Part shown: piece after piece, positions 7,840 through 59,631 of the stretch
How the letters are laid out: every line of letters starts with the position of its first letter
How positions within the stretch are numbered: the first letter of the stretch is position 1
Origin: an uncultured Dehalococcoidales bacterium
Lineage (GTDB): Bacteria; Chloroflexota; Dehalococcoidia; Dehalococcoidales; GCA-2688105
Direction of reading: 5' to 3'
Length of the DNA: 64,000 nt
NCBI GenBank assembly: GCA_964499445.1
Contig: CAZCLE010000003.1
Span: 7,247 to 71,246, forward strand
Notes under the pieces: generated by a model
Databases searched by the model: none
What the model saw: only the letters and a program-made list of their open reading frames with translations
Told to the model about the DNA's origin: nothing
Position numbers and translations under genes: made by a program

Positions 7840-9669
7840 TTAAGAGGTTGCGGAGGCTTCTGGCAAAGGTGAGGGGACGAGTTGGTTAAATAGTGTCTCC
7901 AGCTCTTCACCCTCCAGGGTTTCTTGAGCAAGGAGCTTTTCCGCAATTTGGACTAATTTGGGCTTATTTTCGGTTAAAATCATCTTGGCTACTTCATGGG
8001 CGTGCTGGATAATGTTACGGACTTCCTCATCAATCTGCTGAGCTACCTTTTCGCTGTAGTTCCTTTGCTCAGAGATTTCACGACCGAGGAAGACCATCTC
8101 CTCCTTGTGCCCGAAGGTTAGTGGTCCTAGCTTATCGCTCATTCCATACTCGGTTACCATTTTGCGGGCAAGCTTGGTGGCTTCTTCAATATCATTTTGA
8201 GCCCCGGTTGTTTTTTCGTTGAAAATTAGTTCCTCAGCAGCATGGCCAGCTAGCAAGGTAGCTAGCATATCGTTAAATTGGGAGCGGGTTAGCAGGTATC
8301 GGTCTTCGGTAGGTAAAAGTCGGGTATAACCACCCATCATGCCCCGAGCCACTATAGAGATTTTGTGTACCGGGTCGGCATTAGGCAGCATTCTAGCCAC
8401 CAGGGCATGCCCTGACTCGTGATAGGCGGTGATTTCCTTTTCCTTAGGGCTTATCCTCCGGCTTTTCCTTTCTGGACCGGCAATTACCCGGTCTATAGAC
8501 TCCTCAAGCTCCTGCATCTCAATAGCTTTCTTGCCGCGTCTGGCGGCTAGAATGGCGGCTTCATTAACCAGATTGGCCAGGTCAGCACCGCTAAAACCGG
8601 CTGTCTGTTTAGCCAGCACCTCTAAATTAACCGACTCATCTAATGGTTTGCCATTGGAGTGAACTTTAAGGATGGCGGTTCGACCATTAATATCCGGGCG
8701 GTCAAGGATTACCCGTCGGTCAAAACGACCGGGACGAAGTAAAGCCGGGTCGAGTATATCAGGTCGGTTGGTGGCGGCGAGGATAATCACGCTGGTATTG
8801 GTGTCAAAGCCATCCATCTCCACTAGAATCTGATTAAGGGTTTGCTCCCTCTCGTCATGACTTCCCCCCAGCCCGGCACCGCGGTGGCGACCCACAGCGT
8901 CAATTTCATCAATGAAGATAATGCAAGGGGTATTGCGCTTGGCCTGTTCAAAGAGGTCGCGTACTCTTGAGGCGCCGACACCGACAAACATCTCAACGAA
9001 TTCGCTACCGCTGATGGAAAAGAAGGGCACTCCGGCTTCACCAGCTATGGCTCGAGCCAGTAGCGTTTTCCCCGTGCCCGGTGGACCTATAAGCAGCATG
9101 CCTTTGGGAATACGGGCTCCCAGGCTTTGGAACTTCTCCCGCGACTTGAGGAACTCTACTACTTCGTGCAGCTCTTGCTTGGCTTCCTCTACCCCAGCTA
9201 CATCATCAAAGGTTACCGTTGGCGTATTAGCTGGGAAAAGTCTGGCTCGACTACGACCAAAACTGATAGCCTGACTGTTAGCCCCCTGTGCCCTGCGGAA
9301 GAGGAAGAATAGCAGAGCGCCAAGGAGTATGAGGGGAAGGAAGTTTATCAGCAGACTGCCCCAGTTAAATCCTGATGGTTTAAACCCATAGTCTACTTTA
9401 CTAAGATCAAGTCCGAGTTCTTGGAGTTCAACATAATTGAGGTTAAGGATAAAGGTCTTTAATTTTGTGCCATCCATGGTAGTACTCAGTAGCTCATCAC
9501 CGTCTATTACCATGTTCTCAATCTCACCCCTTTGTGACATAGCCACAATTTCATCCAAGCCGATTTCCGCCGGTTTTTGAACTGTGGGCAGGATAAAGGA
9601 GAAGAGAGCTACCGCTGCCAGTAAGATAGCTATATATATTAAACTGTTACGCTGCCAACCCGGTTTCAT
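7840..9669 (-). CDS. ftsH: ATP-dependent zinc metalloprotease FtsH
   Basis: 2 TM segments, [19 protein letters not shown] motif, HESGH. Confidence 0.97.
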
Positions 9670-25230: not shown

Positions 25231-26004
25231 ATGGTGGTGATACTACGAAACAAAAATCTGGCAACAAGGTTTCAGATACTGGTGGAGATAGCTCATAGCG
25301 GGCCTAACATCCAGCAGCGAGACATTGCCCAGAAGTTAGATATTACCCCACAAGCGGTATCCGAGTACATCAGGCAATTGACCAAGGATGTCCTGCTTAC
25401 CTCAGATGGTCGCTCAAGGTACAAGGTAACCAATGATGGCATAAACTGGATAATAAAGGTGATGAAAGAGCTAAGAAGCTATGGCAGCTTCATTGAGCAA
25501 GCCATTGCCAATATCTCAGTCTGTGCCGCGGTAGCCGACTGCAATCTGGCTCAAGGGCAAACAGTGGGGCTGGAGATGAAGGATGGGCTGCTTTTCGCCA
25601 CTGACCAGGTGGGTGCAGAAGCCAGGGGAATAGCGGTTTCCGATGTCAGAAAGGGAGAGGATGTTGGCGTTACTAGCATAGAGGGGATAGTAGCGCTGCA
25701 AATAGGTGAAGTAACCATCCTCAAAGTACCCGGCATTCAGAAAGGCGGTTCAGGAAAGGTTGACCTGAAACGGCTGGGGGTAGAAGTTAAGGGTAGAGCA
25801 GTCATCGCGGCTATGGGCATTGAAGCCTTAGTTGCCTTGAGACAGGTGGACGCCAGCTTCTTTATGTATGGTGCCAAGGAGGCGGCAATTGAGGCCGCTC
25901 AAAGCGGTCTACGGCCGCTAGTCGTCTGTGTTGAAGATGAAACCTCCGGTCTGATTAAGAGACTGGAGGAGGAAAATATAGGCTACGAACTAGTTGACCT
26001 GTAG
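25231..26004 (+). CDS. Winged-helix transcriptional regulator with C-terminal effector-like domain (archaeal COG1497-like)
   Basis: N-terminal HTH QRDIAQKLDITPQAVSEYIRQL; family assignment from recall. Confidence 0.7.
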   Translation: MVVILRNKNLATRFQILVEIAHSGPNIQQRDIAQKLDITPQAVSEYIRQLTKDVLLTSDGRSRYKVTNDGINWIIKVMKELRSYGSFIEQAIANISVCAAVADCNLAQGQTVGLEMKDGLLFATDQVGAEARGIAVSDVRKGEDVGVTSIEGIVALQIGEVTILKVPGIQKGGSGKVDLKRLGVEVKGRAVIAAMGIEALVALRQVDASFFMYGAKEAAIEAAQSGLRPLVVCVEDETSGLIKRLEEENIGYELVDL

Positions 26005-26571: not shown

Positions 26572-26646
26572 GCGGGTGTAACTCAGCGGAAGAGTGCTTG
26601 CTTCCCAAGCAAGACGTCGTGGGTTCGAATCCCATCACCCGCTCCA
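26572..26646 (+). tRNA. tRNA-Gly (anticodon CCC), CCA encoded
   Basis: Acceptor GCGGGTG/CACCCGC, anticodon arm CTTGC-TTCCCAA-GCAAG, T arm GTGGG-TTCGAAT-CCCAT, 3' TCCA. Confidence 0.96.
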
Positions 26647-26894: not shown

Positions 26895-27049
26895 GTTTAT
26901 CACACGCTACACGTCACTGCACAAAGTGGCTGATTGTGCAGCTTTCTAGTTTGGGAATAATTGCCATAATAGGTGGAATTTTTGCTCTTAAAAGAAGAAT
27001 CTGGGGGCTAGCGCTTACCGGGGCCTATCCGTGCCCAATTCGTGTCTAG
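26891..27049 (+). pseudogene. Short membrane-protein fragment (52 aa ORF)
   Basis: LGIIAIIGGIFALKRRIWGLALTGA helix-basic-helix pattern; ATG overlaps the TPR fragment stop. Confidence 0.45.
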
Positions 27050-27327
27050 TCGCCGACATGTACCTTGCCCCAGATGGCGATAGCCCGTGCCAAAGATTCA
27101 ATATCAATACACTCAGGCGCCTTTCCACCTTCGAAGCAAATCTTCGTATAGTTTTTCAGTATAAGGCCAGCAACACCATCAATAGCGGAACGTACTGCCG
27201 CCAATTGGGTGATGACACTCTCGCATTCACGACCATTTTCAACCATCTTCTGAATGCCACGAATCTGTCCCTCAGCCCTTTTAAGACGCTTGAGTAGTGT
27301 CTCTTTAGATAACGCTTCTTCAACCAT
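27046..27327 (-). CDS. CsoR/RcnR/CstR-family repressor
   Basis: LKRLKRAEGQIRGIQKMV, C35 and C64; Tyr at the usual His ligand position. Confidence 0.9.
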   Translation of the reverse strand: MVEEALSKETLLKRLKRAEGQIRGIQKMVENGRECESVITQLAAVRSAIDGVAGLILKNYTKICFEGGKAPECIDIESLARAIAIWGKVHVGD

Positions 27328-27363
27328 TTTGCCCTCCGTAGCAAATTAGGTTTAATCTACTTA

Positions 27364-27396
27364 TTGACATACCATACCTCCATAGGGTATGATATG
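27364..27396 (+). promoter_or_regulatory. Promoter of the hdr operon overlapped by a CsoR-type operator
   Basis: TTGACA-18 nt-TATGAT; inverted repeat CATACCATACC-tccatag-GGTATGATATG (27368-27396). Confidence 0.75.
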
Positions 27397-27477
27397 TCCT
27401 TGGGTAATTCTATCAGCCTAGTCTATTTTACCACATAATATAATCAAGCTATAGTTTCGTGCCAAAAGAGTGTGATA

Positions 27478-27891
27478 ATGGATGAATTTGAGCCAAAGAT
27501 TATCGGTTTCCTGTGTAATTGGTGTTCCTATGCTGGGGCTGACTTGGCTGGTACTTCACGAACAAAATACCCGCCCAATATGAGAGTAATAAGGGTAATG
27601 TGCTCAGGCAGGGTAGACGAAAGATTAATACTGAAAGCATTTACTGCGGGCGCTGATGGTGTACTTGTTTGTGGCTGTCACCCCGGGGACTGCCACTACC
27701 AGAAAGGGAATTTGAACGCTAGAAGAAGACTTATCGGGTTAAGCCCTTTCCTGGACACCGTAGGCATTGGCAAGGACAGGCTCAGACTGGAATGGATATC
27801 AGCATCCGAGGCTCCAAAGGTAGCTGAGACGGTAAAGAGTTTTACCCAGACCATAAAGGATATCGGTCCTAATCCTATGGCTAGGAAGTAA
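27478..27891 (+). CDS. mvhD: MvhD/FlxD-like [2Fe-2S] subunit, copy 1
   Basis: FLCNWCSYAGAD, VMCSGRVD, GCHPGDCHY. Confidence 0.92.
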   Translation: MDEFEPKIIGFLCNWCSYAGADLAGTSRTKYPPNMRVIRVMCSGRVDERLILKAFTAGADGVLVCGCHPGDCHYQKGNLNARRRLIGLSPFLDTVGIGKDRLRLEWISASEAPKVAETVKSFTQTIKDIGPNPMARK

Positions 27892-27981
27892 TGTCCAGGA
27901 ATAGCGGCAGGTTGCAATAGGGGAGTGCTTGGGTATTTTGCCCAGCTACAATACAAAGATTCAAAAAAAGGGAGGTACAGT

Positions 27982-28335
27982 ATGGCTAAAACAGCAATTA
28001 CAGTGAATGGTTCTGGACCCGGTAATATTTTCCCGGCTTTCATTGTGGGTTCAGCCGCCGCGGCGTGCGGTGATGATGTGGTGCTATTTTTCACCCCTGG
28101 CGGCGCACCAGCTCTGGTGAAAGGTGAGATCGAGAAGATGTCAGCTAAGGGTATGCCGGACTTGAAGGAACTAGTTGAGGGTCTCCAGGTTTTGGGAGGC
28201 AGAATAATAGCCTGTGAGCTGGCAATAGAAGCTAAGGATATTAAAAAGGAAGACTTCAGAGAAGGGGTAGAAATCATGGGCGTAACCTCGTTCTTGGGCG
28301 AAATCAGTGATGCCCAGATAACCTTCTCTTTCTAG
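27982..28335 (+). CDS. DsrE-family sulfur-transfer / peroxiredoxin-like protein
   Basis: AAACGDDVVLFFT, GRIIACELA; RBS GGGAGG; start moved from 27925. Confidence 0.75.
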   Translation: MAKTAITVNGSGPGNIFPAFIVGSAAAACGDDVVLFFTPGGAPALVKGEIEKMSAKGMPDLKELVEGLQVLGGRIIACELAIEAKDIKKEDFREGVEIMGVTSFLGEISDAQITFSF

Positions 28336-28362
28336 AATTATGACATTAAAAAGGAGGCGAAC

Positions 28363-28587
28363 ATGGCAGTACGCATTTTGGATGTCCTGGGGCTTAAGTG
28401 CCCCCAGCCAGTGCTTAAACTAGCAGCAATGGCTAAAGAGATTCCCCCGGGAGACACCGTAGAGGTGTTGGCTGATTGCGAGTCTTTCCCTAAAGATGTA
28501 CAGGTATGGTGTTCTAAGTCGGGTAAGACGCTACTTTTCTGTGTGGATGAAGGCGGGGGAAAGCACAAGGCACAAATCCAGTTCTAA
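28363..28587 (+). CDS. tusA: TusA/SirA-family sulfur carrier
   Basis: LDVLGLKCPQP (CPxP motif), GDTVEVLAD, DVQVWC. Confidence 0.9.
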   Translation: MAVRILDVLGLKCPQPVLKLAAMAKEIPPGDTVEVLADCESFPKDVQVWCSKSGKTLLFCVDEGGGKHKAQIQF

Positions 28588-28600
28588 CCTGGAGGTATTT

Positions 28601-29026
28601 ATGGAGGAAGGATTCACCCCCAAGATAGTTGGGTTCCTTTGTAATTGGTGTTCATATGCTGGTGCTGACCTTGCCGGGGCAGCAAAGTTAGAAATTCCAT
28701 CATCCCTCTCAGTTATCAGGGTGATGTGTTCAGGTAGAGTGGACCCAGTTCTTGTTGCCACTGCGCTTCTGCATGGAGCAGACGGTGTGCTTATTGCCGG
28801 ATGTCACCCAGGTGATTGCCACTATAGAGAAGGGAATTACTATGCCCGCCGAAGATTTGCCCTTTTGAAGAAGACACTTGAGACCTTGGGGCTGGATTCG
28901 GACAGGCTCATGCTTGCCTGGGTATCGGCATCGGAGGGACAAAGGTTCGGTGAGGTAACTAACGAATTTGCCGAGCAGATTAAGGAAATGGGCCCCAACC
29001 CCATGAAGAAAAAGAGTGCGCTATGA
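28601..29026 (+). CDS. mvhD: MvhD/FlxD-like [2Fe-2S] subunit, copy 2
   Basis: Same Cys motifs as copy 1; RBS GGAGG; start moved from 28496. Confidence 0.92.
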   Translation: MEEGFTPKIVGFLCNWCSYAGADLAGAAKLEIPSSLSVIRVMCSGRVDPVLVATALLHGADGVLIAGCHPGDCHYREGNYYARRRFALLKKTLETLGLDSDRLMLAWVSASEGQRFGEVTNEFAEQIKEMGPNPMKKKSAL

Positions 29027-29040
29027 ATGGTGGAGGTGAG

Positions 29041-30321
29041 ATGAACGACAAAGGACAAAACACCCCGGTGCTGGTTATCGGGGCTGGTATTGCCGGTATT
29101 GAGGCAAGCCTGCTGTTAGCCAACTCGGGGAGAAAGGTGTACCTCGTTGAAAAGACTTCGTATACCGGTGGTAATGTAATAAAGTTTGAAGAGGTATTCC
29201 CCAACATGGATTGTGCCACCTGTATGATAGCCCCAAAGCAACAGGAGCTATTAGCCAATGAAAACATTGAGCTTCTGACACTTAGCGAAGTTGAAGCTGT
29301 ACAGGGGTCTGTTGGAGATTTTAGTGTAAAGGTAAGAAAAAAGGCTAGTTATGTTGACTCAGAGAATTGCATTGGATGCGATGCCTGCTTTGACCCCTGT
29401 CCGGTAGAGGTAGACAATGAATTTGAAGAAAGACTCTCAAAGAGAAAGGCAATATATATTCCTTGCGCCGGTGCCCTTCCTAATGTCCCTGCCATTGACA
29501 CAGAGAACTGTCTGCGCTTCAAAGGGCAGGAATGTCAAGCCTGCCAGGAAGCTTGCATATTCGAGGCTATCGACTATACCCAGCAGGATGAGGAGCTCGA
29601 GCTTAAAGTTGGAGCAATCATCGTAGCTACTGGTTTTAAATCATTTGACCCCAGTAAAATCACCCGATATGGATATAAAAAATTAGATAATGTCTACTCT
29701 GCCATGGAGGTTGAACGAATATGTGCCTCTAATGGACCCACTCAGGGGCAGATTCTTACTAAAAGCGGTGAGCCGCCAAAGTCGGTGGCTATTATTCACT
29801 GCGTAGGACGTGAAGAGAAAGGCTATTGCTCCTCAGTATGCTGCATGGCCTCCCTCAAGCTTTCGCACTTCTTTAAGCACAAGTTGCCCGAAGTGAAGAT
29901 AACTCAATTCTACTCTGAACTCTGTATTCCGGGTAAAGCCTATCAGAAGTTCTACGAAGAGGTAAGAGAAAGCGGGGTTGATTTCATTCGGGCTACAGTA
30001 ACCGAAGTTTCACAGTCAGGTAAGGAACTAGCTATCAAGTATAAAACTGAAGACGGCAAGGAAAATACCCTAAATGCGGACATGGTTATCCTTAATCCGG
30101 CGCTTGAACCTGGAGCCGACTCATCAAAACTGGCAGAGACTCTGGGTATTCCCCAAAGCGAGGATGGATTTTTCAGTGAAAAGGCGCCGGACCTTACTCC
30201 TGTAGCTACAGCGCAAGAAGGCATATTTATTGCCGGCTGTGCCCAAGGTCCTAAAGATGTTGCCGAGACGGTGGCTGAGGCAGAAGCGGCAGCAGGAAGA
30301 ATACTCGCATTATCAAGATAG
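29041..30321 (+). CDS. hdrA: HdrA-like flavoprotein 1 (FAD + central 2x[4Fe-4S]; no N-terminal domain or C-terminal ferredoxin)
   Basis: GAGIAG, DCATC, CIGCDACFDPCP, CQACQEAC, HCVG..CSSVCC, GCAQGPKD. Confidence 0.85.
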   Translation: MNDKGQNTPVLVIGAGIAGIEASLLLANSGRKVYLVEKTSYTGGNVIKFEEVFPNMDCATCMIAPKQQELLANENIELLTLSEVEAVQGSVGDFSVKVRKKASYVDSENCIGCDACFDPCPVEVDNEFEERLSKRKAIYIPCAGALPNVPAIDTENCLRFKGQECQACQEACIFEAIDYTQQDEELELKVGAIIVATGFKSFDPSKITRYGYKKLDNVYSAMEVERICASNGPTQGQILTKSGEPPKSVAIIHCVGREEKGYCSSVCCMASLKLSHFFKHKLPEVKITQFYSELCIPGKAYQKFYEEVRESGVDFIRATVTEVSQSGKELAIKYKTEDGKENTLNADMVILNPALEPGADSSKLAETLGIPQSEDGFFSEKAPDLTPVATAQEGIFIAGCAQGPKDVAETVAEAEAAAGRILALSR

Positions 30322-30331
30322 AGGATATCAT

Positions 30332-32029
30332 ATGGCAAAGAAGATAGGTGTATATGTATGCGAATGCGGCGCTAACATAGCCGAGAAGGTGGATATTGAC
30401 AAAGTAATCGCTGCGGTTTCTCCCCTGAAGGATGTAGAAGTTACTGAGAGACACAAACTTCTATGTTCCGAGGGCGGGAAGGAATTCCTAAAGCAAAGCA
30501 TCGAAGAGCACGGCTTAACGCATGTGGTAGTTGCTGCTTGTTCACCAAAGCAGCACGAACTCACCTTCATGAATGTATGTGGACAGGCAGGTCTCAATCC
30601 GCAACTTTTCCAACTTGCCAATATACGTGAGCAATGTGCCTGGGTTACACCGGATGGAGAAGAAGCCACTGACAAGGCAATAAGACAAATAAGAGCCGCT
30701 ATCAGTAGGGTGCTCTACCATGCTCCTCTCGAGAAGAAAGAAGTAGAGGTCTCTCCCGACGTGCTAGTAATCGGTGGTGGTATTGCCGGGATTAAAGCCA
30801 GCCAGTTACTGGCTGCACCAGATAGAAAGGTCTATCTGGTAGAGAAAACCTCCTCCCTGGGAGGCAAAGTAAAAAACTTTAGCAAGCTGTTCACCAATAT
30901 GGAATCTGGCTTGGACCTGATAGCACAGGAGCTACAGAGCCTTGTGGAAAATGAGAATATCGAGGTGCTCACTGATAGTGAGGTTGAGCAGATTTTAGGA
31001 TTCCTTGGAAATTTCGAAGTCAAGGTAGTAAAGAAGGTAGAAGACAAAGAGCTAAACTTCAATGTCGGGGCAGTGATACTGGCTACCGGATTTGAGCTGT
31101 TTGACCCCAAGGGGCTTCCTCAATATGGATACGGAAAGTTAGACAATATCTACACAAGTCTAGAATTCGAAGAGATGAATATCCCTGACGGACCTACTGG
31201 CGGGAAAATCCTCCTTAAAAACGGTAAACCTCCTGAGTCGGTTGCCATTATCCATTGCGTGGGACGGAAAGAAAAGGACTATTGTTCCAAGGTATGTTGC
31301 CTGTATTCACTCAAATTTGACCGGATGCTGAAGTCCCAGCTTCCAGCAGTCAAGGTGTCTCATTTATACTCTGACCTGTGTATTCCAGGGAAATCCTTCC
31401 AGAAGTTTTATGAAGATACGAGGAAGATGGAAATAGAGTTTGTTCGCTCGTCAAGAACTGAGGTTACTGGCAACGGAAAAGGTACGACTATCAAATATGA
31501 AACCGAGACCGGCTCAAAAGGTGATTTGGCTGCAGATATGGTAATCCTCATCCCGGCGATGGAAAGCAGCAGTGATGCCCAGAAATTTGCTGAAATGCTT
31601 AACATCCCTCAAGACGAAAGGGGATTCCTTGCCGAAGAGCACCAATTACTTGGCCCAGTGGCATCCGCTGTGGAGGGAGTATTTGTTATTGGCTGCGCTC
31701 AAGGACCCCAAAGTATTTCAGAGTCGATAGTTCAAGCGGAGGCGGCAGCCGGGAAGATACTGTCTGCACTCGTTCCGGGCAGAAAATTAGAACTGGAAGT
31801 TAGAACCTCCGAGATATCTGAAAACTTCTGTCTTGGATGTAAAATCTGTATTGATGTTTGCCCGTATGGCGCTATTACCTTTGATGAGATGAGAAGAATC
31901 TCAGTGGTAAATGAGGTCTTGTGCCATGGCTGTGGAAGCTGTGCCGCCGCCTGTCCTTCCGGTGCAGCCAAGCTGAGGCATTCTACCTTTCCACAGATTT
32001 ATCAAGAGCTTAAAGAGGTGTTGCGATAA
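30332..32029 (+). CDS. hdrA: HdrA-like flavoprotein 2 (N-terminal domain + FAD + C-terminal 2x[4Fe-4S]; no central ferredoxin)
   Basis: KIGVYVCECG, ACSP, IREQCAW, GGGIAG, CSKVCC, CLGCKICIDVCP, CHGCGSCAAACP; start moved from 30230. Confidence 0.88.
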   Translation: MAKKIGVYVCECGANIAEKVDIDKVIAAVSPLKDVEVTERHKLLCSEGGKEFLKQSIEEHGLTHVVVAACSPKQHELTFMNVCGQAGLNPQLFQLANIREQCAWVTPDGEEATDKAIRQIRAAISRVLYHAPLEKKEVEVSPDVLVIGGGIAGIKASQLLAAPDRKVYLVEKTSSLGGKVKNFSKLFTNMESGLDLIAQELQSLVENENIEVLTDSEVEQILGFLGNFEVKVVKKVEDKELNFNVGAVILATGFELFDPKGLPQYGYGKLDNIYTSLEFEEMNIPDGPTGGKILLKNGKPPESVAIIHCVGRKEKDYCSKVCCLYSLKFDRMLKSQLPAVKVSHLYSDLCIPGKSFQKFYEDTRKMEIEFVRSSRTEVTGNGKGTTIKYETETGSKGDLAADMVILIPAMESSSDAQKFAEMLNIPQDERGFLAEEHQLLGPVASAVEGVFVIGCAQGPQSISESIVQAEAAAGKILSALVPGRKLELEVRTSEISENFCLGCKICIDVCPYGAITFDEMRRISVVNEVLCHGCGSCAAACPSGAAKLRHSTFPQIYQELKEVLR

Positions 32030-32171
32030 GCAAAGCTCTATTTTTGAGGTAGTCCTATCGAAACCGGTGCCGGTGAAGAGGTACCGACAGCCCCGGCTGA
32101 CGATGGAGGACCGTGCGGCTAAGAAAATAAGGGAGATATAAGAGGGAATCTTAATCCTGCAAGGAGTTAAT

Positions 32172-33332
32172 ATGGCTTCTACTCAGAGAGGTGCAGTTTT
32201 CCCGGCTAATGAGGGAACGCGAGAGGGAATTCTTGACTTTATGAAACAGGCTCTGGGCAAAGGTTGCTTTGATGCCGTCCTCATTCCAGCCAGAGTGCCG
32301 GGGAGTGATTCATTTACTTACTTGTTAATTCAGGATGAAGCGCTCCTGAAAAATGCCTATCCCCTATGCCCGGTTATGCCGGTTCAGGGAGCTAAAGCCC
32401 TATCCAGTCTTACCGGACGCGGCAAAGGCAAGAAAAGAATAGCTGCTCTGGTACGACCCTGTGAGGCGAGAGCAACAATTGAGCTAGCTAAACTTGGGCA
32501 AGTAGACTTAGAGAATATATTTCTTATCAGTCTTGATTGTCCTGGGGCACTGCCACTGGCCGACTGGGTCAAGGACCCAAAGAAAACTGAAGATGTATTC
32601 TCGGAAGTCCTCAAGGGAGGGACTAGCGAGAGCTTGCGTCCAGTTTGCCAGATATGTGACAAATTCTCTACAACTGGTGGGGAAGACTTGCATATCGGAA
32701 TACTAGGGACAGAGAGTGGCAGGATTTTCCTCGTTCCTCGCAGCCCAAAAGGCGAAGACATCCTTGACAAGCTCGGTCTTCCAGCCACAGAGGATATATC
32801 AAGCTGGGAACACGTGGTGAATTCCCTGACCGAGAAGAGAAAAGAGAAGCGCAAGCAGTTTCTGGAGGAATTTTCTTCAAGGGCTACTGGCCTGGACAAT
32901 TTACTTGATATCTTCAGCAAATGTATAAACTGCCACAATTGTATGAGGGTATGCCCCATATGTTACTGCCGACAGTGTTTCTTCGATTCGGATAATATGA
33001 AATTCACTTGTGAAGACTATCTCAGGAGAGCAGAAATTACGGGCGGGCTCAGACTCCCCCCCGAGACACTGCTCTTTCATATTGGACGTATGCTGCATAT
33101 GTCCCTCTCCTGCGTATCATGCGGAGTATGTGAAGATGCTTGCCCCATGTCAATCCCGGTAGCACAGGTCTTCAGCTTGGTAGGTGACAAAAATCAGAAG
33201 GAATTTGACTATATTCCTGGTAAGAGCCTGGATGAACCCAGCCCGCTGAGGGTTTATGAGGAGAAGGAATTTGAAGAAGTGGAGCAGTCTTATGTAGAGA
33301 CCTCCGCCAAACAGGAGGCGCGAGATGCCTAA
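32172..33332 (+). CDS. FlxC/FdhB-like (FrhB family) iron-sulfur subunit 1
   Basis: VRPCEARA, CINCHNCMRVCPICYCRQC, CVSCGVCEDACP. Confidence 0.8.
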   Translation: MASTQRGAVFPANEGTREGILDFMKQALGKGCFDAVLIPARVPGSDSFTYLLIQDEALLKNAYPLCPVMPVQGAKALSSLTGRGKGKKRIAALVRPCEARATIELAKLGQVDLENIFLISLDCPGALPLADWVKDPKKTEDVFSEVLKGGTSESLRPVCQICDKFSTTGGEDLHIGILGTESGRIFLVPRSPKGEDILDKLGLPATEDISSWEHVVNSLTEKRKEKRKQFLEEFSSRATGLDNLLDIFSKCINCHNCMRVCPICYCRQCFFDSDNMKFTCEDYLRRAEITGGLRLPPETLLFHIGRMLHMSLSCVSCGVCEDACPMSIPVAQVFSLVGDKNQKEFDYIPGKSLDEPSPLRVYEEKEFEEVEQSYVETSAKQEARDA

Positions 33333-34419
33333 AATACTGAAGGTAAATAAAGGCGCAGAGGAATGTGTGCGAGAACTTCTCAGGTTTCTCTTAGAGAATG
33401 GCAGGGTAGATGGAGTTTTCACTCTCAGCAAGGTGGATGGTGGGGTAGCTTATTCGCTCATTACTGACCCGAATGCGCTCGAAGATATCTTGCCCCTTTT
33501 CCCTTTGATGCCGGCAAACGCAGCTAAGTTACTTTCCCGTCTTACATTAGTGGAACCTGCTGATAAACCTATCGCCGTAGTTATAAGACCTTGCGAATTG
33601 AGAGCACTCATAGAACTTATAAAGCGAAGCCAGGGAAGTTGGGAAAACCTCTTATTCATAAGTTCAACCTGTAGTGGAGCCTATCCACTTGAAATGGCTG
33701 TCAATGGGAATATTGAAGAGAGGCTCCCCCAATATTGGGATGCAGTTAAAAAGGGTGAGATTGCCTCTGATATAAGGCCCGCCTGTGCCGCCTGTAAGCA
33801 TTTCGTGCCTTACAATGCAGACATGACTGTCGCTTTGATTGGAAACAAGGATGTGGATAAACAGTGTGTAATACATCTGAATACTGACAAAGGAGAGCAG
33901 TTTGCGGCTGGTATAGGTGGAGAGCTTGCCGAAGGAGAAGTTGAGTCAGAAGTAATTGAAGGTCTTCGGAGCAAAAGGGAAGCCCAAAAGAAAAAACTAT
34001 TTGATGAACTCGGAATTGAAGATTTTGATATACAGAAAGTTTTTGAGAAGTGCATAGGTTGTCATGGGTGCAGCAAAATCTGCCCTGCTTGCTACTGCCA
34101 TGTATGCTTCTTCGACTCTGGGGGCGATGAGCATGAGTCAAATTATTATGAAGCAGAACTAGATAAAATGGGATATGTGCGAGTTCTTCCTGCCCCGATA
34201 TTTTACCAGCTAGTAAGGTTATTCCACGTAAGCATGTCCTGCGTAGGATGCGGCTTATGTGCCGATGTGTGCCCGGTTGATATCCCACTGTGGGCTGTCT
34301 CTTTGAAAACAGGAGAGGCAGTTCAGAATGCGTTTGATTATCTACCAGGGAGGGATATAGAGGAGGAGATCCCCCTTACTACATTCAAACCGGAAGAATT
34401 TGCTGGAGTTGCAGAATAA
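33325..34419 (+). CDS. FlxC/FdhB-like iron-sulfur subunit 2 (paralog)
   Basis: IRPCELRA, CIGCHGCSKICPACYCHVC, CVGCGLCADVCP. Confidence 0.8.
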   Translation: MPKILKVNKGAEECVRELLRFLLENGRVDGVFTLSKVDGGVAYSLITDPNALEDILPLFPLMPANAAKLLSRLTLVEPADKPIAVVIRPCELRALIELIKRSQGSWENLLFISSTCSGAYPLEMAVNGNIEERLPQYWDAVKKGEIASDIRPACAACKHFVPYNADMTVALIGNKDVDKQCVIHLNTDKGEQFAAGIGGELAEGEVESEVIEGLRSKREAQKKKLFDELGIEDFDIQKVFEKCIGCHGCSKICPACYCHVCFFDSGGDEHESNYYEAELDKMGYVRVLPAPIFYQLVRLFHVSMSCVGCGLCADVCPVDIPLWAVSLKTGEAVQNAFDYLPGRDIEEEIPLTTFKPEEFAGVAE

Positions 34420-34457
34420 AGGTGATAGTATAAAACAATACTCTGGGTCAAGTTAGA

Positions 34458-34593
34458 ATGAAACTAACCAATTCTTTTGCCCTGTATCTGCACTGCGGCA
34501 GGGTATGTCCTCCCCAAAAGCAATCGGTAGAGCCTCCCATTACACATTAGTCCAGAATGTGCAGTCGAGGCAACAGTTGCTTATTTAGTGTGA
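34458..34593 (+). pseudogene. Possible degraded 2[4Fe-4S] ferredoxin
   Basis: Across frameshifts reads MKLTN..LHCGRVCPP-KAIGRASHYT..PECAVEA, resembling CxxCxxxCP..AI...Y.I.PEC. Confidence 0.35.
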
Positions 34594-34605
34594 TTGAGGA
34601 TAAAA

Positions 34606-34640
34606 AAACAGGATCGAGAAACTAGCTCTCGATCCTGTTT
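34606..34640. terminator. Bidirectional intrinsic terminator
   Basis: 14-bp stem AAACAGGATCGAGA/TCTCGATCCTGTTT with A and T tails, between convergent units. Confidence 0.85.
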
Positions 34641-34656
34641 AATTTAAGAATCAGCC

Positions 34657-34797
34657 TTAGCTCTTTCCTATTCTGAACATCTTAGTGCCACATGTGGGGC
34701 ATACACCTTGGGTTGCTGGCCTCCCGTTCTTCATAGTTATAGCTTTAGCATCCTTCATTTCTCTCTTAGCACGGCACTTCACGCAATATGCTTGCAT
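34657..34797 (-). CDS. 46-aa zinc-ribbon protein (DUF5679-like), missed by the ORF track
   Basis: MQAYCVKCRAKREMKDAKAITMKNGRPATQGVCPTCGTKMFRIGKS; RBS AGGAGGTG. Confidence 0.85.
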   Translation of the reverse strand: MQAYCVKCRAKREMKDAKAITMKNGRPATQGVCPTCGTKMFRIGKS

Positions 34798-56633: not shown

Positions 56634-57758
56634 CTATGCTAGCTCTTTAAACTCCTCCAAATATCTCCCGGTTAGTGTCTCCCAGCTAACGTTATCTATG
56701 GCGTATTGTCGGGCGTTTTGGGAGTGGTTTGAGTTATCTCCTGTTAAGTAGTCAATTATCTTCCTGGCTGCCTTCTTTTCGTCTTTATAATCAACGATAA
56801 TGCCACAGTTGGCCTCCTCAATGATTTTAAAATGCGGGATATCTGACGCGATGCTAGGTAAGCCAGATGCCATTGCCTCAGCCAGGGTTAATATCGGCTC
56901 TCCCCCTTCATACTTTGATGATACTGCAAAATAATCGGAACCGGCATAGAGGTCAGGGGCATCCTGTTCATGGTCCACATAGCCCAGGAATCTGACGTTG
57001 TTTAATCCCTGTTGCTGAGCAAGTTTTTGTGCCCCTGATAAGAGTTCCCCCACTCCAGCAATAACCACGGTTATATCTTTAATCTCCTTCTCAACCAGTG
57101 AAAATACCCGAATCAATCTATACGGCTCTTTCTGCTCGGTCAATCTGCCCAGACTTAAGACTATAATGTCATTCTCAGAAAGGTTGAATTTCCCCCGCAG
57201 CCTTTTCTTATCATCAGCCGGTTTAAATCTCTCAACATTTACTCCATTGGGTATGTAGGTTATTTTTTCGCGGTCTATGCCCCTCGCTTCCAACTCAGTG
57301 GCTGCCTGATTACTGACGGCGGTAAATTTAACATTGCCAGGACTGAGCTTGTGCCAGCTGTTTTGCTCAAACTGGGATGAGATTTTGTAGAGAAGATGAT
57401 AGTACCACGAGTATATCCGGCGAACACTCATCCCGTAGTAAGTGCCATGTATGGTAATCAGGCTTTTCTTGAAGGGGCTACTTCTGATAAAGAAGGGGTT
57501 ATTAAGCCAGACCATGTCATAATCCTCAGCCCTTTGTTTAAAATACCTGACGACCTGATACCAATAGTAGAGTAAACCCAGTATGCCAAACTTCTGAATC
57601 ATCCAAGTATTGCCCAGCGTTATATCGGGGCCGGTTGGCGAGCAGATGGTGCAGTCAACCCCCATTGCCTGGAGTCGAGTGACGACATTATAGACAACGT
57701 TGCCAATACCTGATGAATACCGAGGGGGATATTCCTGGGTACAAACTAATAGCTTCAT
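56634..57758 (-). CDS. Glycosyltransferase family 4
   Basis: QEYPP, IPNGVN, LGRL..QK, EGG..LTLAEAMASG. Confidence 0.9.
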   Translation of the reverse strand: MKLLVCTQEYPPRYSSGIGNVVYNVVTRLQAMGVDCTICSPTGPDITLGNTWMIQKFGILGLLYYWYQVVRYFKQRAEDYDMVWLNNPFFIRSSPFKKSLITIHGTYYGMSVRRIYSWYYHLLYKISSQFEQNSWHKLSPGNVKFTAVSNQAATELEARGIDREKITYIPNGVNVERFKPADDKKRLRGKFNLSENDIIVLSLGRLTEQKEPYRLIRVFSLVEKEIKDITVVIAGVGELLSGAQKLAQQQGLNNVRFLGYVDHEQDAPDLYAGSDYFAVSSKYEGGEPILTLAEAMASGLPSIASDIPHFKIIEEANCGIIVDYKDEKKAARKIIDYLTGDNSNHSQNARQYAIDNVSWETLTGRYLEEFKELA

Positions 57759-59614
57759 CTAAATTCCTGCCCCATTATACCACTCGCTTTTTGATTTTCA
57801 ATAAATAGGCGGTGCCAGATTTCGAATATAAGAATACTCCATAGCTTTTGAGCATTGAGGAAATTCATATTGTAACTACCTCTGGACTTCTGGAACCTGG
57901 TTAGTAGATTTGAAATATACTCCTGGTTATAGTAATCATGTTTTGACTGGTGAAGTAATTGGTCTAAGGTATCCCTTAACGAGTGCCTGAACCAGTAATC
58001 GGCGGGCACATTAAAGCCGTGTTTTCTTCGGTTTATTATCCGGTCAGGCACTAATCCGGCCATTGCTTTCCTGAAGATATACTTGCCCGTCAGTCCTTTC
58101 AATTTCAGCCGTGTTGGAATGGTAAAGGCAAACTCGGCGATGTTGTGGTCCAGGATAGGCACCCTTTCTTCTACAGCATGCGCCATCGTCATCTTATCGG
58201 CTTTAATAAAGAAGTCGTTGGGAAGCCAGGTTTTTATGCCGAAGCAAAGCAATTTATTTAATAGCTTAGCGTCATCAGGGAAGTAATTATTCAGATTGCT
58301 GTCCGGCTTGAAATTACCTAGTTTCCTTAGTTCGTCTTCATTAAACAGGGATATCACACTTAAATACTGTTCAGCCTCGCTATTGGCAGCGAGCAGATTT
58401 AAGGCACGTCTCACATTGCTACTCTCGGGGAAGTAGTTGCCGATAAAGGGAAAAAGGTGATGGTTGAGGAAGCCGGGGAGTAACTTGGAAAGATTATGCC
58501 CCACCATCATAATCTTATAATTATCATATCCGGCAAATAGCTCATCGCCACCCTCTCCCGCCAGGACTACGGTTACTTCCTTTTTGGCGAACCTGGAGAG
58601 GACATAGGTGGGCAGGGTAGCGGCATCACCTATCGGTTCATCCATGTGCCAGACCATTTCCGGCAGCAGGTTCAGGTCTTTTTCGCCAACATTAAATTCA
58701 TGATGTTCAGTTCCGAAGTATCGGGACACAAATCTAGCATACTCCAGTTCATCTTCACCCTCAGCGCCAAAGCCGACCGAGAATGTCTTTATGTGGTCGG
58801 TCAATTCGCTCATTAAAGCTACGACGCAGGTCGAGTCCAGACCACCGCTCAGGTAGACGCCCAAGGGGACATCGCTCATTAAGCGCTGTTTCACTGAGCT
58901 TCTAAGTAACTCTCGCAGTTTTTCAATATAATACTCCTCAGGTTCATCAGTAATATTCTCTACCAAGTCCCAGTATTTAGAGGTCTGAATTTTCCCATCT
59001 TTAAGGAGCAAGATATGTCCGGGTAGCAGCTTATAAATGTTCTCCATCAATGTTCTCTGGCTGGGAACATACCTATAGGTAAAGAACTCGTTTAATGCGG
59101 TTAAGTTTATATTTCTGGTAATGCCTTCATATTCCAGGATTGCTTTCAGTTCCGAGGCGAAGACAAACTTATTACCTTTGATGTAATAATACAGGGGCTT
59201 TATTCCCAACCTATCCCTGGCTAGGAAGAGTCGCTTTTGGTTAAGGTCCCAGATGGCGAAGGCAAATATACCCTCGAGGTGGTCAACACAGCCAGTATCG
59301 TATTCTTCGTAGGCATGTACGATGACCTCGGTATCACTATTGGTATAGAAGCGATGACCCCTCTGAATCAGGCTTGCTTTCAATTCCAGGTAGTTGTATA
59401 TGGCACCATCAAATACTATCTGAATGGAACCGTCTTGGTTGTGGATAGGCTGTTTCCCGGTAAGCAGGTCAATTACCTTCAGCCTTTGATGACCTAATGA
59501 TACATGCTCGTCTAAATAACAGCCCGATTCATCAGGACCCCTATGTTTAACCGCAGCCATCATTTTGCTAAGCAATTTCTCATCCTGCCAGTTAAAGCCA
59601 ACAATGCCACACAT
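57755..59614 (-). CDS. asnB: Asparagine synthase (glutamine-hydrolysing)-like amidotransferase
   Basis: N-terminal MCGIVG, HRGPD, LSGGLDS, GEGGDELFAGY, ERVPILD. Confidence 0.92.
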   Translation of the reverse strand: MCGIVGFNWQDEKLLSKMMAAVKHRGPDESGCYLDEHVSLGHQRLKVIDLLTGKQPIHNQDGSIQIVFDGAIYNYLELKASLIQRGHRFYTNSDTEVIVHAYEEYDTGCVDHLEGIFAFAIWDLNQKRLFLARDRLGIKPLYYYIKGNKFVFASELKAILEYEGITRNINLTALNEFFTYRYVPSQRTLMENIYKLLPGHILLLKDGKIQTSKYWDLVENITDEPEEYYIEKLRELLRSSVKQRLMSDVPLGVYLSGGLDSTCVVALMSELTDHIKTFSVGFGAEGEDELEYARFVSRYFGTEHHEFNVGEKDLNLLPEMVWHMDEPIGDAATLPTYVLSRFAKKEVTVVLAGEGGDELFAGYDNYKIMMVGHNLSKLLPGFLNHHLFPFIGNYFPESSNVRRALNLLAANSEAEQYLSVISLFNEDELRKLGNFKPDSNLNNYFPDDAKLLNKLLCFGIKTWLPNDFFIKADKMTMAHAVEERVPILDHNIAEFAFTIPTRLKLKGLTGKYIFRKAMAGLVPDRIINRRKHGFNVPADYWFRHSLRDTLDQLLHQSKHDYYNQEYISNLLTRFQKSRGSYNMNFLNAQKLWSILIFEIWHRLFIENQKASGIMGQEFR

Positions 59615-59631
59615 ATCTACCTTCCCACCAG

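Follow-up and report, generated by a model that had tools for sequence, protein, structure and literature searches.

The window analysed here, a 64,000-nt stretch of one contig (CAZCLE010000003.1) of an uncultured Dehalococcoidales bacterium, contains a unit (27046-34640) in which a divergent repressor gene stands next to eight co-oriented genes. These genes encode two MvhD-type electron-transfer proteins, the sulfur carriers DsrE and TusA, two HdrA flavoproteins and two Fe-S proteins related to FdhB (Table 1). Comparison of the locus across lineages makes it well supported that this unit represents a real, conserved, sulfur-linked module. For its function we tentatively propose an HdrBC-less, probably electron-bifurcating complex which would use sulfane sulfur bound to TusA and DsrE as acceptor; this chemistry we infer from homology and gene context. 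An earlier note on the same DNA had described eight co-oriented genes behind an operator-covered promoter, divergent from a CsoR-family gene, with DsrE and TusA (CPQP) placed inside a flavin/Fe-S operon. Domain searches with Pfam and NCBIfam on all nine proteins of the unit confirmed the genes, their strands and their domains.

The order of the genes is not due to chance, because it is found again in dozens of species. When one genome per GTDB species was scanned with an HdrA1 alignment, 77 loci were obtained and then mapped by tblastn. The counts given here also take in the window and three loci from metagenomes or single-amplified genomes (SAGs; L001-L003), and each denominator comprises only those loci whose contig reaches far enough for the gene in question. 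When the linkage of tusA and dsrE, whose lack of conservation the earlier note had named as a refutation of its idea, was put to this synteny test, it proved to be conserved: tusA lies adjacent upstream of hdrA1 in 56/56 loci, with an mvhD gene between the two, directly upstream of hdrA1, in 59/59, and dsrE is found upstream of tusA in 50 of 54. The exceptions are three Cloacimonadota loci and L023; at least in the Cloacimonadota loci L059 and L072, dsrE is located a few kb upstream, together with yeeE and rhodanese genes. Downstream of hdrA1, hdrA2 follows in 50/50 loci, and both fdhB-like genes are present in 47/47, always as a pair. Searches seeded with TusA on metagenome contigs of the Joint Genome Institute (JGI) led to the same arrangement. 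Among the 80 best of 589 confirmed matches, dsrE stands immediately before tusA in all 72 cases and mvhD comes next in 67 of 68, with hdrA1 (58/58) and hdrA2 (42/42) in their places.

The nearest HdrA1 homologues (76-98% identity) belong to metagenome-assembled genomes (MAGs) of Dehalococcoidia. According to MAG labels, which may be imperfect, the bacterial loci come from Dehalococcoidia, Aminicenantes, WOR-3/TA06/Stahlbacteria, Cloacimonadota and one Desulfobacterales-labelled MAG, and the archaeal ones from Thermoplasmata/Methanomassiliicoccaceae. Outside the Dehalococcoidia, the second mvhD is not the first gene of the set; it is the last one, placed after the second fdhB-like gene, and the parity of two HdrA, two MvhD and two FdhB-like proteins is kept. 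The earlier note had suggested a synteny search for hdrA, tusA, dsrE and csoR together. Across lineages this linkage holds for the first three genes but not for the regulator, since the CstR-type repressor is limited to the Dehalococcoidia among the loci compared. Aminicenantes-type loci have no CstR-type gene and instead carry a co-oriented ArsR-family regulator directly upstream of dsrE.

Both sulfur carriers have conserved cysteines. TusA has the PF01206 fold with its CPxP motif; Cys13 of the CPQP sequence, which aligns to Cys19 of E. coli TusA, is present in 58/59 orthologues, and two further cysteines, Cys39 and Cys60, are present in 59/59 each. Cys39 is part of an 'ADC' motif and aligned to Asp45 of E. 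coli TusA. The second, YeeE-linked TusA of the same genomes is devoid of these extra cysteines. In DsrE, which shows the DsrE fold, a single cysteine, Cys78, is invariant (54/54) and aligns to the active-site cysteine of 2QS7 and 3PNX. The nearest solved relative, 2QS7, is termed DsrE2B-type in PMC11094781, and we tentatively assign the protein to a DsrE2-like subtype. The near-perfect synteny across phyla from either seed, combined with the invariant cysteines, supports the view that TusA and DsrE are integral to the unit and not passengers. The true gene start of dsrE is that of MAKTA at 27982 and not the GTG at 27925.

The earlier note had given the gene order as mvhD-dsrE-tusA-mvhD-hdrA-hdrA. 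This order stands, but the two HdrA proteins are not like copies: they are complementary halves of a canonical HdrA, whose domains are all present but divided between two polypeptides. HdrA1 corresponds to residues 142-568 in alignments with solved HdrA chains (E-value ~1e-105). It consists of the thioredoxin-reductase-like flavin adenine dinucleotide (FAD) domain, into which the 2x[4Fe-4S] ferredoxin domain is inserted, without the N- and C-terminal domains, and keeps DCxxC, the cluster motif CxGR...YCSxVCC and residues equivalent to E356 and K409. In HdrA2, the N-terminal 4-Cys, FAD and C-terminal 2x[4Fe-4S] domains are present, and the inserted ferredoxin domain is lost together with DCxxC; in phmmer alignments to 8RVU, 5ODC and 7BKB this protein matches in two blocks that skip chain residues ~240-316. 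It, too, keeps the CxGR...YCSxVCC motif and the E356/K409 equivalents, residues used as markers of bifurcating HdrA in PMC12054007. Against the three methanogen-type structures, the two proteins reach E-values of ~1e-105 and ~1e-120, versus ~1e-33 against sHdrA of a sulfur oxidiser (6TJR); by this measure, both resemble methanogen-type (bifurcating) HdrA far more than sHdrA. The common cores of HdrA1 and HdrA2 are 55-59% identical, and each is less similar to the full-length HdrA of a related genome, which points to a duplication after which each copy lost domains that the other kept. The idea of a special redox CxxC in HdrA1 was also considered and discarded, DCATC being the ordinary DCxxC of HdrA. 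MvhD1 has five conserved cysteines and is 58% identical to MvhD2.

For the last two genes the designation 'FlxC-like' of the earlier note has to be replaced, since the best solved relatives of their products are FdhB chains and PF04432 scores above its cutoff of 23.3 bits in both (24.6 and 33.8 bits). We thus regard them as FrhB/FdhB-family Fe-S proteins. The first one matches FdhB over its full length in phmmer searches (9T1S_M, 5.6e-34; 8RVU_E, 1.6e-27; 7BKB_E, 1.2e-21), all of these chains being subunits of Fdh/Elp-Hdr supercomplexes, and homologues are annotated as 'formate dehydrogenase subunit beta' at JGI. Foldseek with its AlphaFold2 (AF2) model, which is reliable for residues 1-240 only, placed FdhB on top, followed by FrhB, Fsr, HCAR and P. 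furiosus SHI-beta. Fifteen cysteines are invariant in 47/47 orthologues and Cys123 is found in 45/47, which fits several Fe-S clusters. The second protein shows the same cysteine pattern at 33% identity to the first. These results place the proteins in the FrhB/FdhB family, whose marks are its C-terminal domain, the fold, a [4Fe-4S] motif and an FdhB-like ferredoxin-type domain at the C-terminus; the first protein may possibly be a flavoprotein as well. An AsrA/HydB 'sulfur reductase' identity of the FdhB-like proteins was dismissed: only Fe-S motifs match these models, and SHI-beta is a distant fold match.

The absence of HdrB/C, a hydrogenase large subunit, Fdh alpha and FlxA from the cluster had already been noticed from the sequence. 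None of them, including any CCG-domain protein as the mark of HdrB/C, was detected in the operon or the scanned 64-kb window by tblastn with an HdrBC-fusion query and by Pfam on 40 of the longer remaining open reading frames (ORFs) outside the trp operon. An HdrB with two CCG domains plus HdrC, as in canonical HdrABC, is thus not found in operon or window. FdhA and FrhA, the partners expected for the FrhB/FdhB family, were not detected in the window either. To look further into the surroundings of related modules, we used the 22 long-flank loci, whose contigs extend 6 kb or more upstream and 9 kb or more downstream. A CCG-domain gene within ~10 kb was seen in six of them; the other 16 were without.

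Table 1. Location of the features of the unit in the window (last row: example of the sister gene set, with its own locus coordinates).
Feature	Position	Strand	Remarks
cstR-like repressor (CsoR/RcnR family)	27046-27327	-	PF02583, E=4e-25; divergent from operon
Sigma-70-type promoter	27364-27393	+	TTGACA 27364-27369, 18-nt spacer, TATGAT 27388-27393
cst-type operator palindrome	27374-27390		ATACCT-CCATA-GGGTAT; between -35 and -10, overlaps -10 box
Leader motif TTTTACCACAT	27426-27436	+	~35 nt past -10 box; same relative position in most of 13 loci
mvhD1	27472-27891	+	MvhD/FlpD [2Fe-2S] electron-transfer protein; PF02662, E=3e-53
dsrE	27982-28335	+	DsrE2-like sulfur carrier, 117 aa; PF13686, PF02635
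tusA	28363-28587	+	TusA variant with several conserved cysteines, CPQP; PF01206, E=1.3e-16
mvhD2	28601-29026	+	Second MvhD/FlpD; PF02662, E=3.5e-53
hdrA1	29041-30321	+	426 aa; FAD domain and inserted 2x[4Fe-4S] ferredoxin domain
hdrA2	30332-32029	+	565 aa; N-terminal 4-Cys, FAD and C-terminal 2x[4Fe-4S] domains
fdhB-like 1 (earlier 'FlxC-like')	32172-33332	+	PF04432; FrhB/FdhB-family Fe-S protein
fdhB-like 2	33325-34419	+	Paralogue of fdhB-like 1; PF04432, E=3.7e-8
Terminator hairpin	34606-34640		15-bp stem; called by scan on minus strand
Sister set (mvhG-mvhA-hycI-hdrA-mvhD-tusA)	L064:6491-12267		Next to it downstream: group-1-like hydrogenase with cytochrome b

In the Dehalococcoidia, the regulatory region suggests a link of the operon to sulfur sensing. 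The repressor shows the PF02583 fold; in 14/14 orthologues Cys35 and Cys64 are invariant and Tyr60 stands in for the Cu(I)-binding His. It lacks an N-terminal His or Pro. Among solved structures, S. pneumoniae CstR (7MQ1, E=1.5e-12) is closest to it, ahead of CsoR, InrS and FrmR; at the His position of the alignment, CstR 7MQ1 has Asn, versus His in CsoR 4M1P and InrS. The Cys residues at the X and Z positions, the lack of a His at Y and a GC-rich inverted-repeat operator of the cst type identify the repressor, on sequence grounds, as one of the CstR (persulfide-sensor) type, in line with the csoR-like, persulfide-responsive gene that had been suspected. A copper or nickel sensor was rejected because the His ligands are absent.

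The promoter boxes match the consensus at 11 of 12 positions and are kept in place in 13 loci. The operator, too, recurs without exception in the 13 distinct Dehalococcoidia-type loci with a divergent repressor, in the form ATACC(C/T)-N5-(A/G)GGGTAT between -35 and -10; the consensus of promoter and operator from these loci reads TTGACAT-ATACCCC-N-TAGGGTAT-AAT. As judged from its sequence, the operator of the window resembles that of S. mitis cst, given as ATACCCTTATGGGGTAT in PMC8643695. The leader motif downstream of the promoter could be a second promoter element or binding site. For the ArsR-family regulator of the Aminicenantes-type loci (L025-L037 and L136, e.g. L026:1181-1471), we observed two conserved cysteines (GERCVNDI...NLRCYF) and a position 50-80 nt upstream of dsrE. 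Among specific NCBIfam models, BigR fits it best (E=1.3e-14, short of the cutoff), and the likeness to BigR is only suggestive since the second cysteine is off the BigR position.

Within the operon, the intergenic gaps range from -8 to 90 nt and Shine-Dalgarno sequences are clear at most starts. The ATG chosen for hdrA1 has a GGAGG ribosome-binding site and yields the length of most homologues. The single exception to the close packing is the 142-nt gap between hdrA2 and fdhB-like 1, in which neither a significant fold (z=-0.5) nor a terminator was found; in relatives, this gap is the insertion site of rhodanese, tusA and yeeE genes. At the 3' end, the terminator announced by the earlier note at 34606 is indeed present as a strong hairpin, the region containing it having a fold z-score of -4.45. 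On the plus strand, ~190 nt past the last stop codon, the T tail is weaker (TTT-AA-TTT). Because of this and the minus-strand call of the scan, the hairpin is best read as a bidirectional terminator shared by the operon and a convergent 46-amino-acid gene. The latter, an ORF at 34657-34797 (-), is zinc-ribbon-like with two CxxC pairs (MQAYCVKC...CPTCGTK) and converges on the operon at the common hairpin.

Relatives of the unit carry further sulfur genes. Several Dehalococcoidia have a multi-domain rhodanese, a second TusA and a YeeE/TsuA-type thiosulfate transporter (NCBIfam TsuA model, 267 bits) inside the hdrA2/fdhB-like 1 gap. In a group at 62-63% identity, this trio lies 2-5 kb upstream, and it is upstream as well in at least the Cloacimonadota loci L059 and L072. 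Judged by these three placements in three lineages, the trio is recruited independently each time. More distant HdrA matches were obtained in Nitrospirota, Riflebacteria, Myxococcia, Acidobacteria and unclassified MAGs. In ~16 loci within L061-L080, we found a sister set, mvhG-mvhA-hycI-hdrA-mvhD-tusA, with a full-length HdrA of 655 amino acids and a TusA carrying the same GLKCPQP...ADC signature as the main type. No HdrBC-like gene was detected in the stretches covered around these sets by tblastn with HdrBC and HdrC queries. In a few main-type loci (e.g. L020 and L022), mvhG occurs directly downstream of the module. Since main-type and sister sets have this TusA in common, it looks like a dedicated partner of HdrA/MvhD that is combined with exchangeable electron-input modules. 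Directly downstream of the module in L044, L050, L056, L059, L060 and L072, there is a paralogous hdrA-hdrA-mvhD-fdhB-like-fdhB-like module without TusA and DsrE, which may be a sibling complex with another acceptor.

Our proposal for the mechanism is as follows. The eight co-transcribed genes most likely give rise to one soluble complex. By homology, its core would be a pseudo-symmetric HdrA1-HdrA2 heterodimer in which the N-terminal, inserted and C-terminal Fe-S domains occur once each. By analogy to the solved Fdh/Mvh-Hdr supercomplexes, each HdrA would be connected via one MvhD [2Fe-2S] protein to one FdhB-like Fe-S subunit, which may bind a flavin as well, resulting in a 2:2:2 scaffold. 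The gene context suggests that the HdrBC branch is replaced by a sulfur relay made up of the DsrE2-like carrier and the TusA variant. Sulfane sulfur would enter as persulfide or, in relatives with TsuA/YeeE, second TusA and rhodanese, as thiosulfonate from imported thiosulfate; DsrE and TusA would then carry it, with a possible resolution to a Cys13-S(n)-Cys39 bridge. TusA may supply its own resolving cysteine, Cys39, in which case the complex need only reduce a protein di- or trisulfide. Reduction of the carrier-bound sulfur to H2S would be the high-potential branch. The electron donor is presumably a hydride carrier (F420H2 or NAD(P)H) at one FdhB-like subunit, or H2 if the locus is linked to mvhGA, and the second electron would probably reach ferredoxin via the inserted ferredoxin domain of HdrA1. 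In the Dehalococcoidia, the sequence features of the CstR-type repressor suggest that it covers the -10 box and should leave the operator when Cys35/Cys64 become persulfidated. The system could be an energy-conserving electron sink, or it could let strict anaerobes clear or assimilate reactive sulfur by reduction.

With respect to energetics, the couple of S0 or polysulfide and HS- lies at ~-260 to -270 mV at standard conditions and shifts by ~+30 mV per tenfold drop in sulfide, nearing the potential of CoM-S-S-CoB at micromolar sulfide. Bifurcation is therefore thermodynamically conceivable. With more reserve, we consider it possible that TusA-bound sulfane sulfur, supplied by DsrE and present as a persulfide or a Cys13-S(n)-Cys39 bridge, is the physiological high-potential acceptor of HdrBC-less bifurcating HdrA/MvhD complexes in general, which would then form a new class of cytoplasmic sulfur reductases with interchangeable input modules: FdhB-like subunits in the unit described here and, for the sister clusters of the Nitrospirota type, an Mvh [NiFe] hydrogenase.

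A number of observations weigh against the mechanism proposed above. In the unit itself, no S-S-reducing site is recognisable and no CCG-domain protein is encoded, and the conserved cysteines of the HdrA and FdhB-like proteins are all plausibly Fe-S ligands. That Cys39 of TusA probably lies next to the persulfide-carrying Cys13 is argued from topology, as both residues follow parallel strands of the beta-alpha-beta unit. The N-terminal Pfam domain PF04422, relevant to putative FAD binding, was not detected in the FdhB-like proteins, and in the AF2 model of the first one the Fe-S half has a predicted local distance difference test (pLDDT) score of <50, so that we draw no conclusions on cofactor sites. 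All named homologues of TusA, HdrA1 and the FdhB-like proteins are from MAGs or SAGs, i.e. from uncultured carriers. Finally, canonical hdrCB(A)-mvhD clusters adjoin the module in six of the 22 long-flank loci, and its 5' mvhD is a remnant in L003 (4386-4688) and missing in L017 and L018 (~8600-8950). In these three loci, an operon of hdr(BC-fusion), hdrA (653 amino acids) and mvhD is situated just past the repressor gene.

One may thus ask whether the module is part of a conventional Hdr in two pieces, feeding an HdrBC or HdrD (CCG) protein encoded elsewhere that would reduce a disulfide or trisulfide of the two-cysteine TusA, similar to what happens with DsrC in sulfate reducers. HdrB is the only established site of Hdr-type S-S reduction, and hdrC/hdrB or an hdrBC fusion together with hdrA and mvhD stands beside the module in L003, L017, L018, L042, L046, L051 and L053; the defective or missing 5' mvhD of the first three would agree with such a division of labour. 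We nevertheless regard this as unlikely, given that a CCG-domain gene is absent from 16 of the 22 long-flank loci, was not detected in the 64-kb window and does not show up beside the sister mvhGA-hdrA-mvhD-tusA clusters in the stretches covered; moreover, the gene parity suits a self-contained 2:2:2 complex. On the other hand, the complex could be a hydride-carrier/ferredoxin oxidoreductase (Nfn-like or F420H2/NAD(P)H:ferredoxin), whose FdhB-like pair binds two carriers, with TusA and DsrE being accessory and not substrates, for example for sulfur supply to Fe-S clusters or cofactors, or for regulation. The FrhB/FdhB family normally joins Fe-S chains to a hydride carrier, the two FdhB-like paralogues are as diverged as 33% identity, no S-S catalytic site can be recognised, and the paralogous modules of six loci do without TusA and DsrE. 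What such an enzyme leaves unexplained are the invariant carrier cysteines and the HdrA/MvhD-specific ADC-type TusA, the repeated independent recruitment of thiosulfate transporters and rhodaneses, and the CstR-type control; as a whole, including the accessory roles for TusA and DsrE, we consider it quite improbable. Last, sulfane sulfur on TusA and DsrE could be oxidised in an sHdr-like fashion, with electrons passed to ferredoxin or a hydride carrier. Sets of TusA and DsrE are a hallmark of sulfur oxidisers with sHdr and rDsr, as stated in PMC11094781. Against this direction, which appears highly improbable to us, no sHdrB or sHdrC was found in the window and no lipoate-binding protein among the scanned ORFs, although no specific search for the latter was made. 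The HdrA proteins are of the methanogen type by the E-values given above, and the hosts are presumably anaerobes, as we take it from lineage names and sample types.

Compared to known systems, we rate the unit, on the basis of its proteins, as an HdrA/MvhD flavin-Fe-S complex with a new set of partners. The expectation of the earlier note that it would match neither sHdr, Qmo nor Hdr-Flx was borne out on the defining subunits. By analogy, its working mode would be most like that of the Fdh/Mvh-MvhD-Hdr supercomplexes and QmoAB, its relay like rhd-tusA-dsrE2/sHdr, and its regulation like the cst operons. The Fdh/Elp/Mvh-MvhD-HdrABC supercomplexes (7BKB, 8RVU, 9T1S, 5ODC) provide the closest solved structures for six of the eight proteins of the operon and have one MvhD per HdrA and one input module per MvhD, which matches the 2:2:2 parity. 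Unlike these methanogen complexes, the unit has no HdrB/HdrC and no FdhA or MvhAG in the window and has DsrE and TusA added, an HdrA homodimer is replaced by two complementary paralogues, and the hosts are not methanogens.

QmoABC likewise pairs two HdrA paralogues of unequal length without HdrB, includes an MvhD module and is linked to sulfur metabolism. In QmoB the MvhD module is fused, whereas here MvhD is separate and present twice, and FdhB-like subunits and sulfur carriers are added. The NCBIfam model of the membrane subunit, qmoC, had no match in the nine proteins, and aprBA and sat were not seen among the scanned ORFs of the window. In PMC10504309, 'type II QmoAB' pairs are described that are closer to HdrA and occur in organisms without Dsr or Apr; the unit reported here differs from QmoABC in its subunit content. 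In FlxABCD-HdrABC of Desulfovibrio, HdrA is supplied by the MvhD-type FlxD and Fe-S subunits, and DsrC, a small two-cysteine sulfur-handling protein, is the acceptor. By contrast, neither FlxA, which is the NAD(P)H module, nor HdrBC was detected in the window, and FdhB is the best match among solved chains of the proteins formerly called 'FlxC-like'.

The sHdr relay (TusA/DsrE2/DsrE3/rhodanese) and the rhd-tusA-dsrE2 unit, as described in PMC11094781, also tie TusA and a DsrE2-type carrier to an Hdr-type flavoprotein, with a rhodanese that we find in relatives of the unit. The mark of sHdr itself is the set sHdrC1B1-A-H-C2B2 (or B3-Etf) with LbpA. None of sHdrB1/B2/C1/C2 was detected in the window, and no LbpA among the scanned ORFs, where no search specific for LbpA was made. 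Further differences to sHdr are the methanogen (bifurcating) type of HdrA, the extra invariant cysteines of TusA and the hosts, which we take to be anaerobes. The cst operons of S. aureus and of E. faecalis and S. mitis (cstR-rhdA-coaP-rhdB), according to PMC8643695, share a two-cysteine, His-less CsoR-family repressor with an ATACCC...GGGTAT operator, which controls sulfurtransferases and a persulfide-removing flavoprotein; the CstR-controlled CoA persulfide reductase (CoAPR) encoded with rhodaneses in E. faecalis and S. mitis provides a precedent. The sink would differ, being a multi-subunit HdrA/MvhD/FdhB-like complex in place of CoAPR, CstB or SQR, and so does the host, a strict anaerobe of the Chloroflexota. 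In the searchable full-text literature, subscription reviews lying outside it, we found no description of a dsrE-tusA-mvhD-hdrA-hdrA-fdhB-fdhB or mvh-hdrA-tusA unit, and the only four full texts naming both 'TusA' and 'MvhD' did so in unrelated contexts throughout.

The other scanned ORFs of the window have housekeeping functions; they comprise genes for fatty-acid synthesis, FtsH, modification of tRNA, an ABC transporter and glycosyltransferases, and a trp operon can be inferred from ORF order and a TrpE-like translation. Just past the repressor gene lies a tRNA-Gly(CCC) (26572-26646), and upstream of the tRNA a regulator with winged-helix HTH and DUF7839 domains (25231-26004). Between 54000 and 58000, the GC content drops to 0.42-0.44 versus ~0.48; this low-GC stretch harbours two glycosyltransferases and a sulfotransferase-like gene and could be an island for cell-surface glycans gained by horizontal transfer. 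An asparagine synthase gene (57755-59662) is found just past it, and a 693-amino-acid ORF beside it (59632-61713) had no Pfam match. In related loci, other genes flank the module. One Dehalococcoidia lineage (L001:5762-8239, -) has same-strand genes for a methyltransferase, a TrmO-like protein and a TauE/SafE-family (sulfite-exporter-type) membrane protein after the repressor. Downstream of the module in L001 (15709-17396), L003 (13765-15578), L018, L024, L126, L132 and L139, an FlpD-ferredoxin-FlpD fusion is followed by a PF12225 (DUF5981) protein, presumably of the former MTHFR_C/MetV-like family. L001 has a thioredoxin gene in addition; in the window this set is missing.

HdrA/MvhD modules are widespread outside methanogens, and what they reduce without CoM-S-S-CoB, and here also without HdrBC, is largely unknown. 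The unit offers a concrete candidate for the acceptor, namely a dedicated multi-cysteine TusA fed by DsrE, owing to its conservation in the sampled bacteria and archaea, the independent recruitment of thiosulfate import and rhodaneses, and the regulators of sulfur-sensor type. The split HdrA provides a natural experiment: as each accessory domain is present in one copy, it could reveal which electron path serves which partner. If our proposal is true, sulfane sulfur or thiosulfate would be reduced in the cytoplasm, possibly with energy conservation, in abundant sediment lineages without recognised sulfur respiration (Dehalococcoidia, Aminicenantes, WOR-3, Cloacimonadota and Thermoplasmata). 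The CstR paradigm would be widened from aerobic detoxification to strict anaerobes. Should TusA-bound sulfur be the acceptor of such complexes in general, this would also answer the old question of which acceptor many bacterial Mvh-HdrA systems use.

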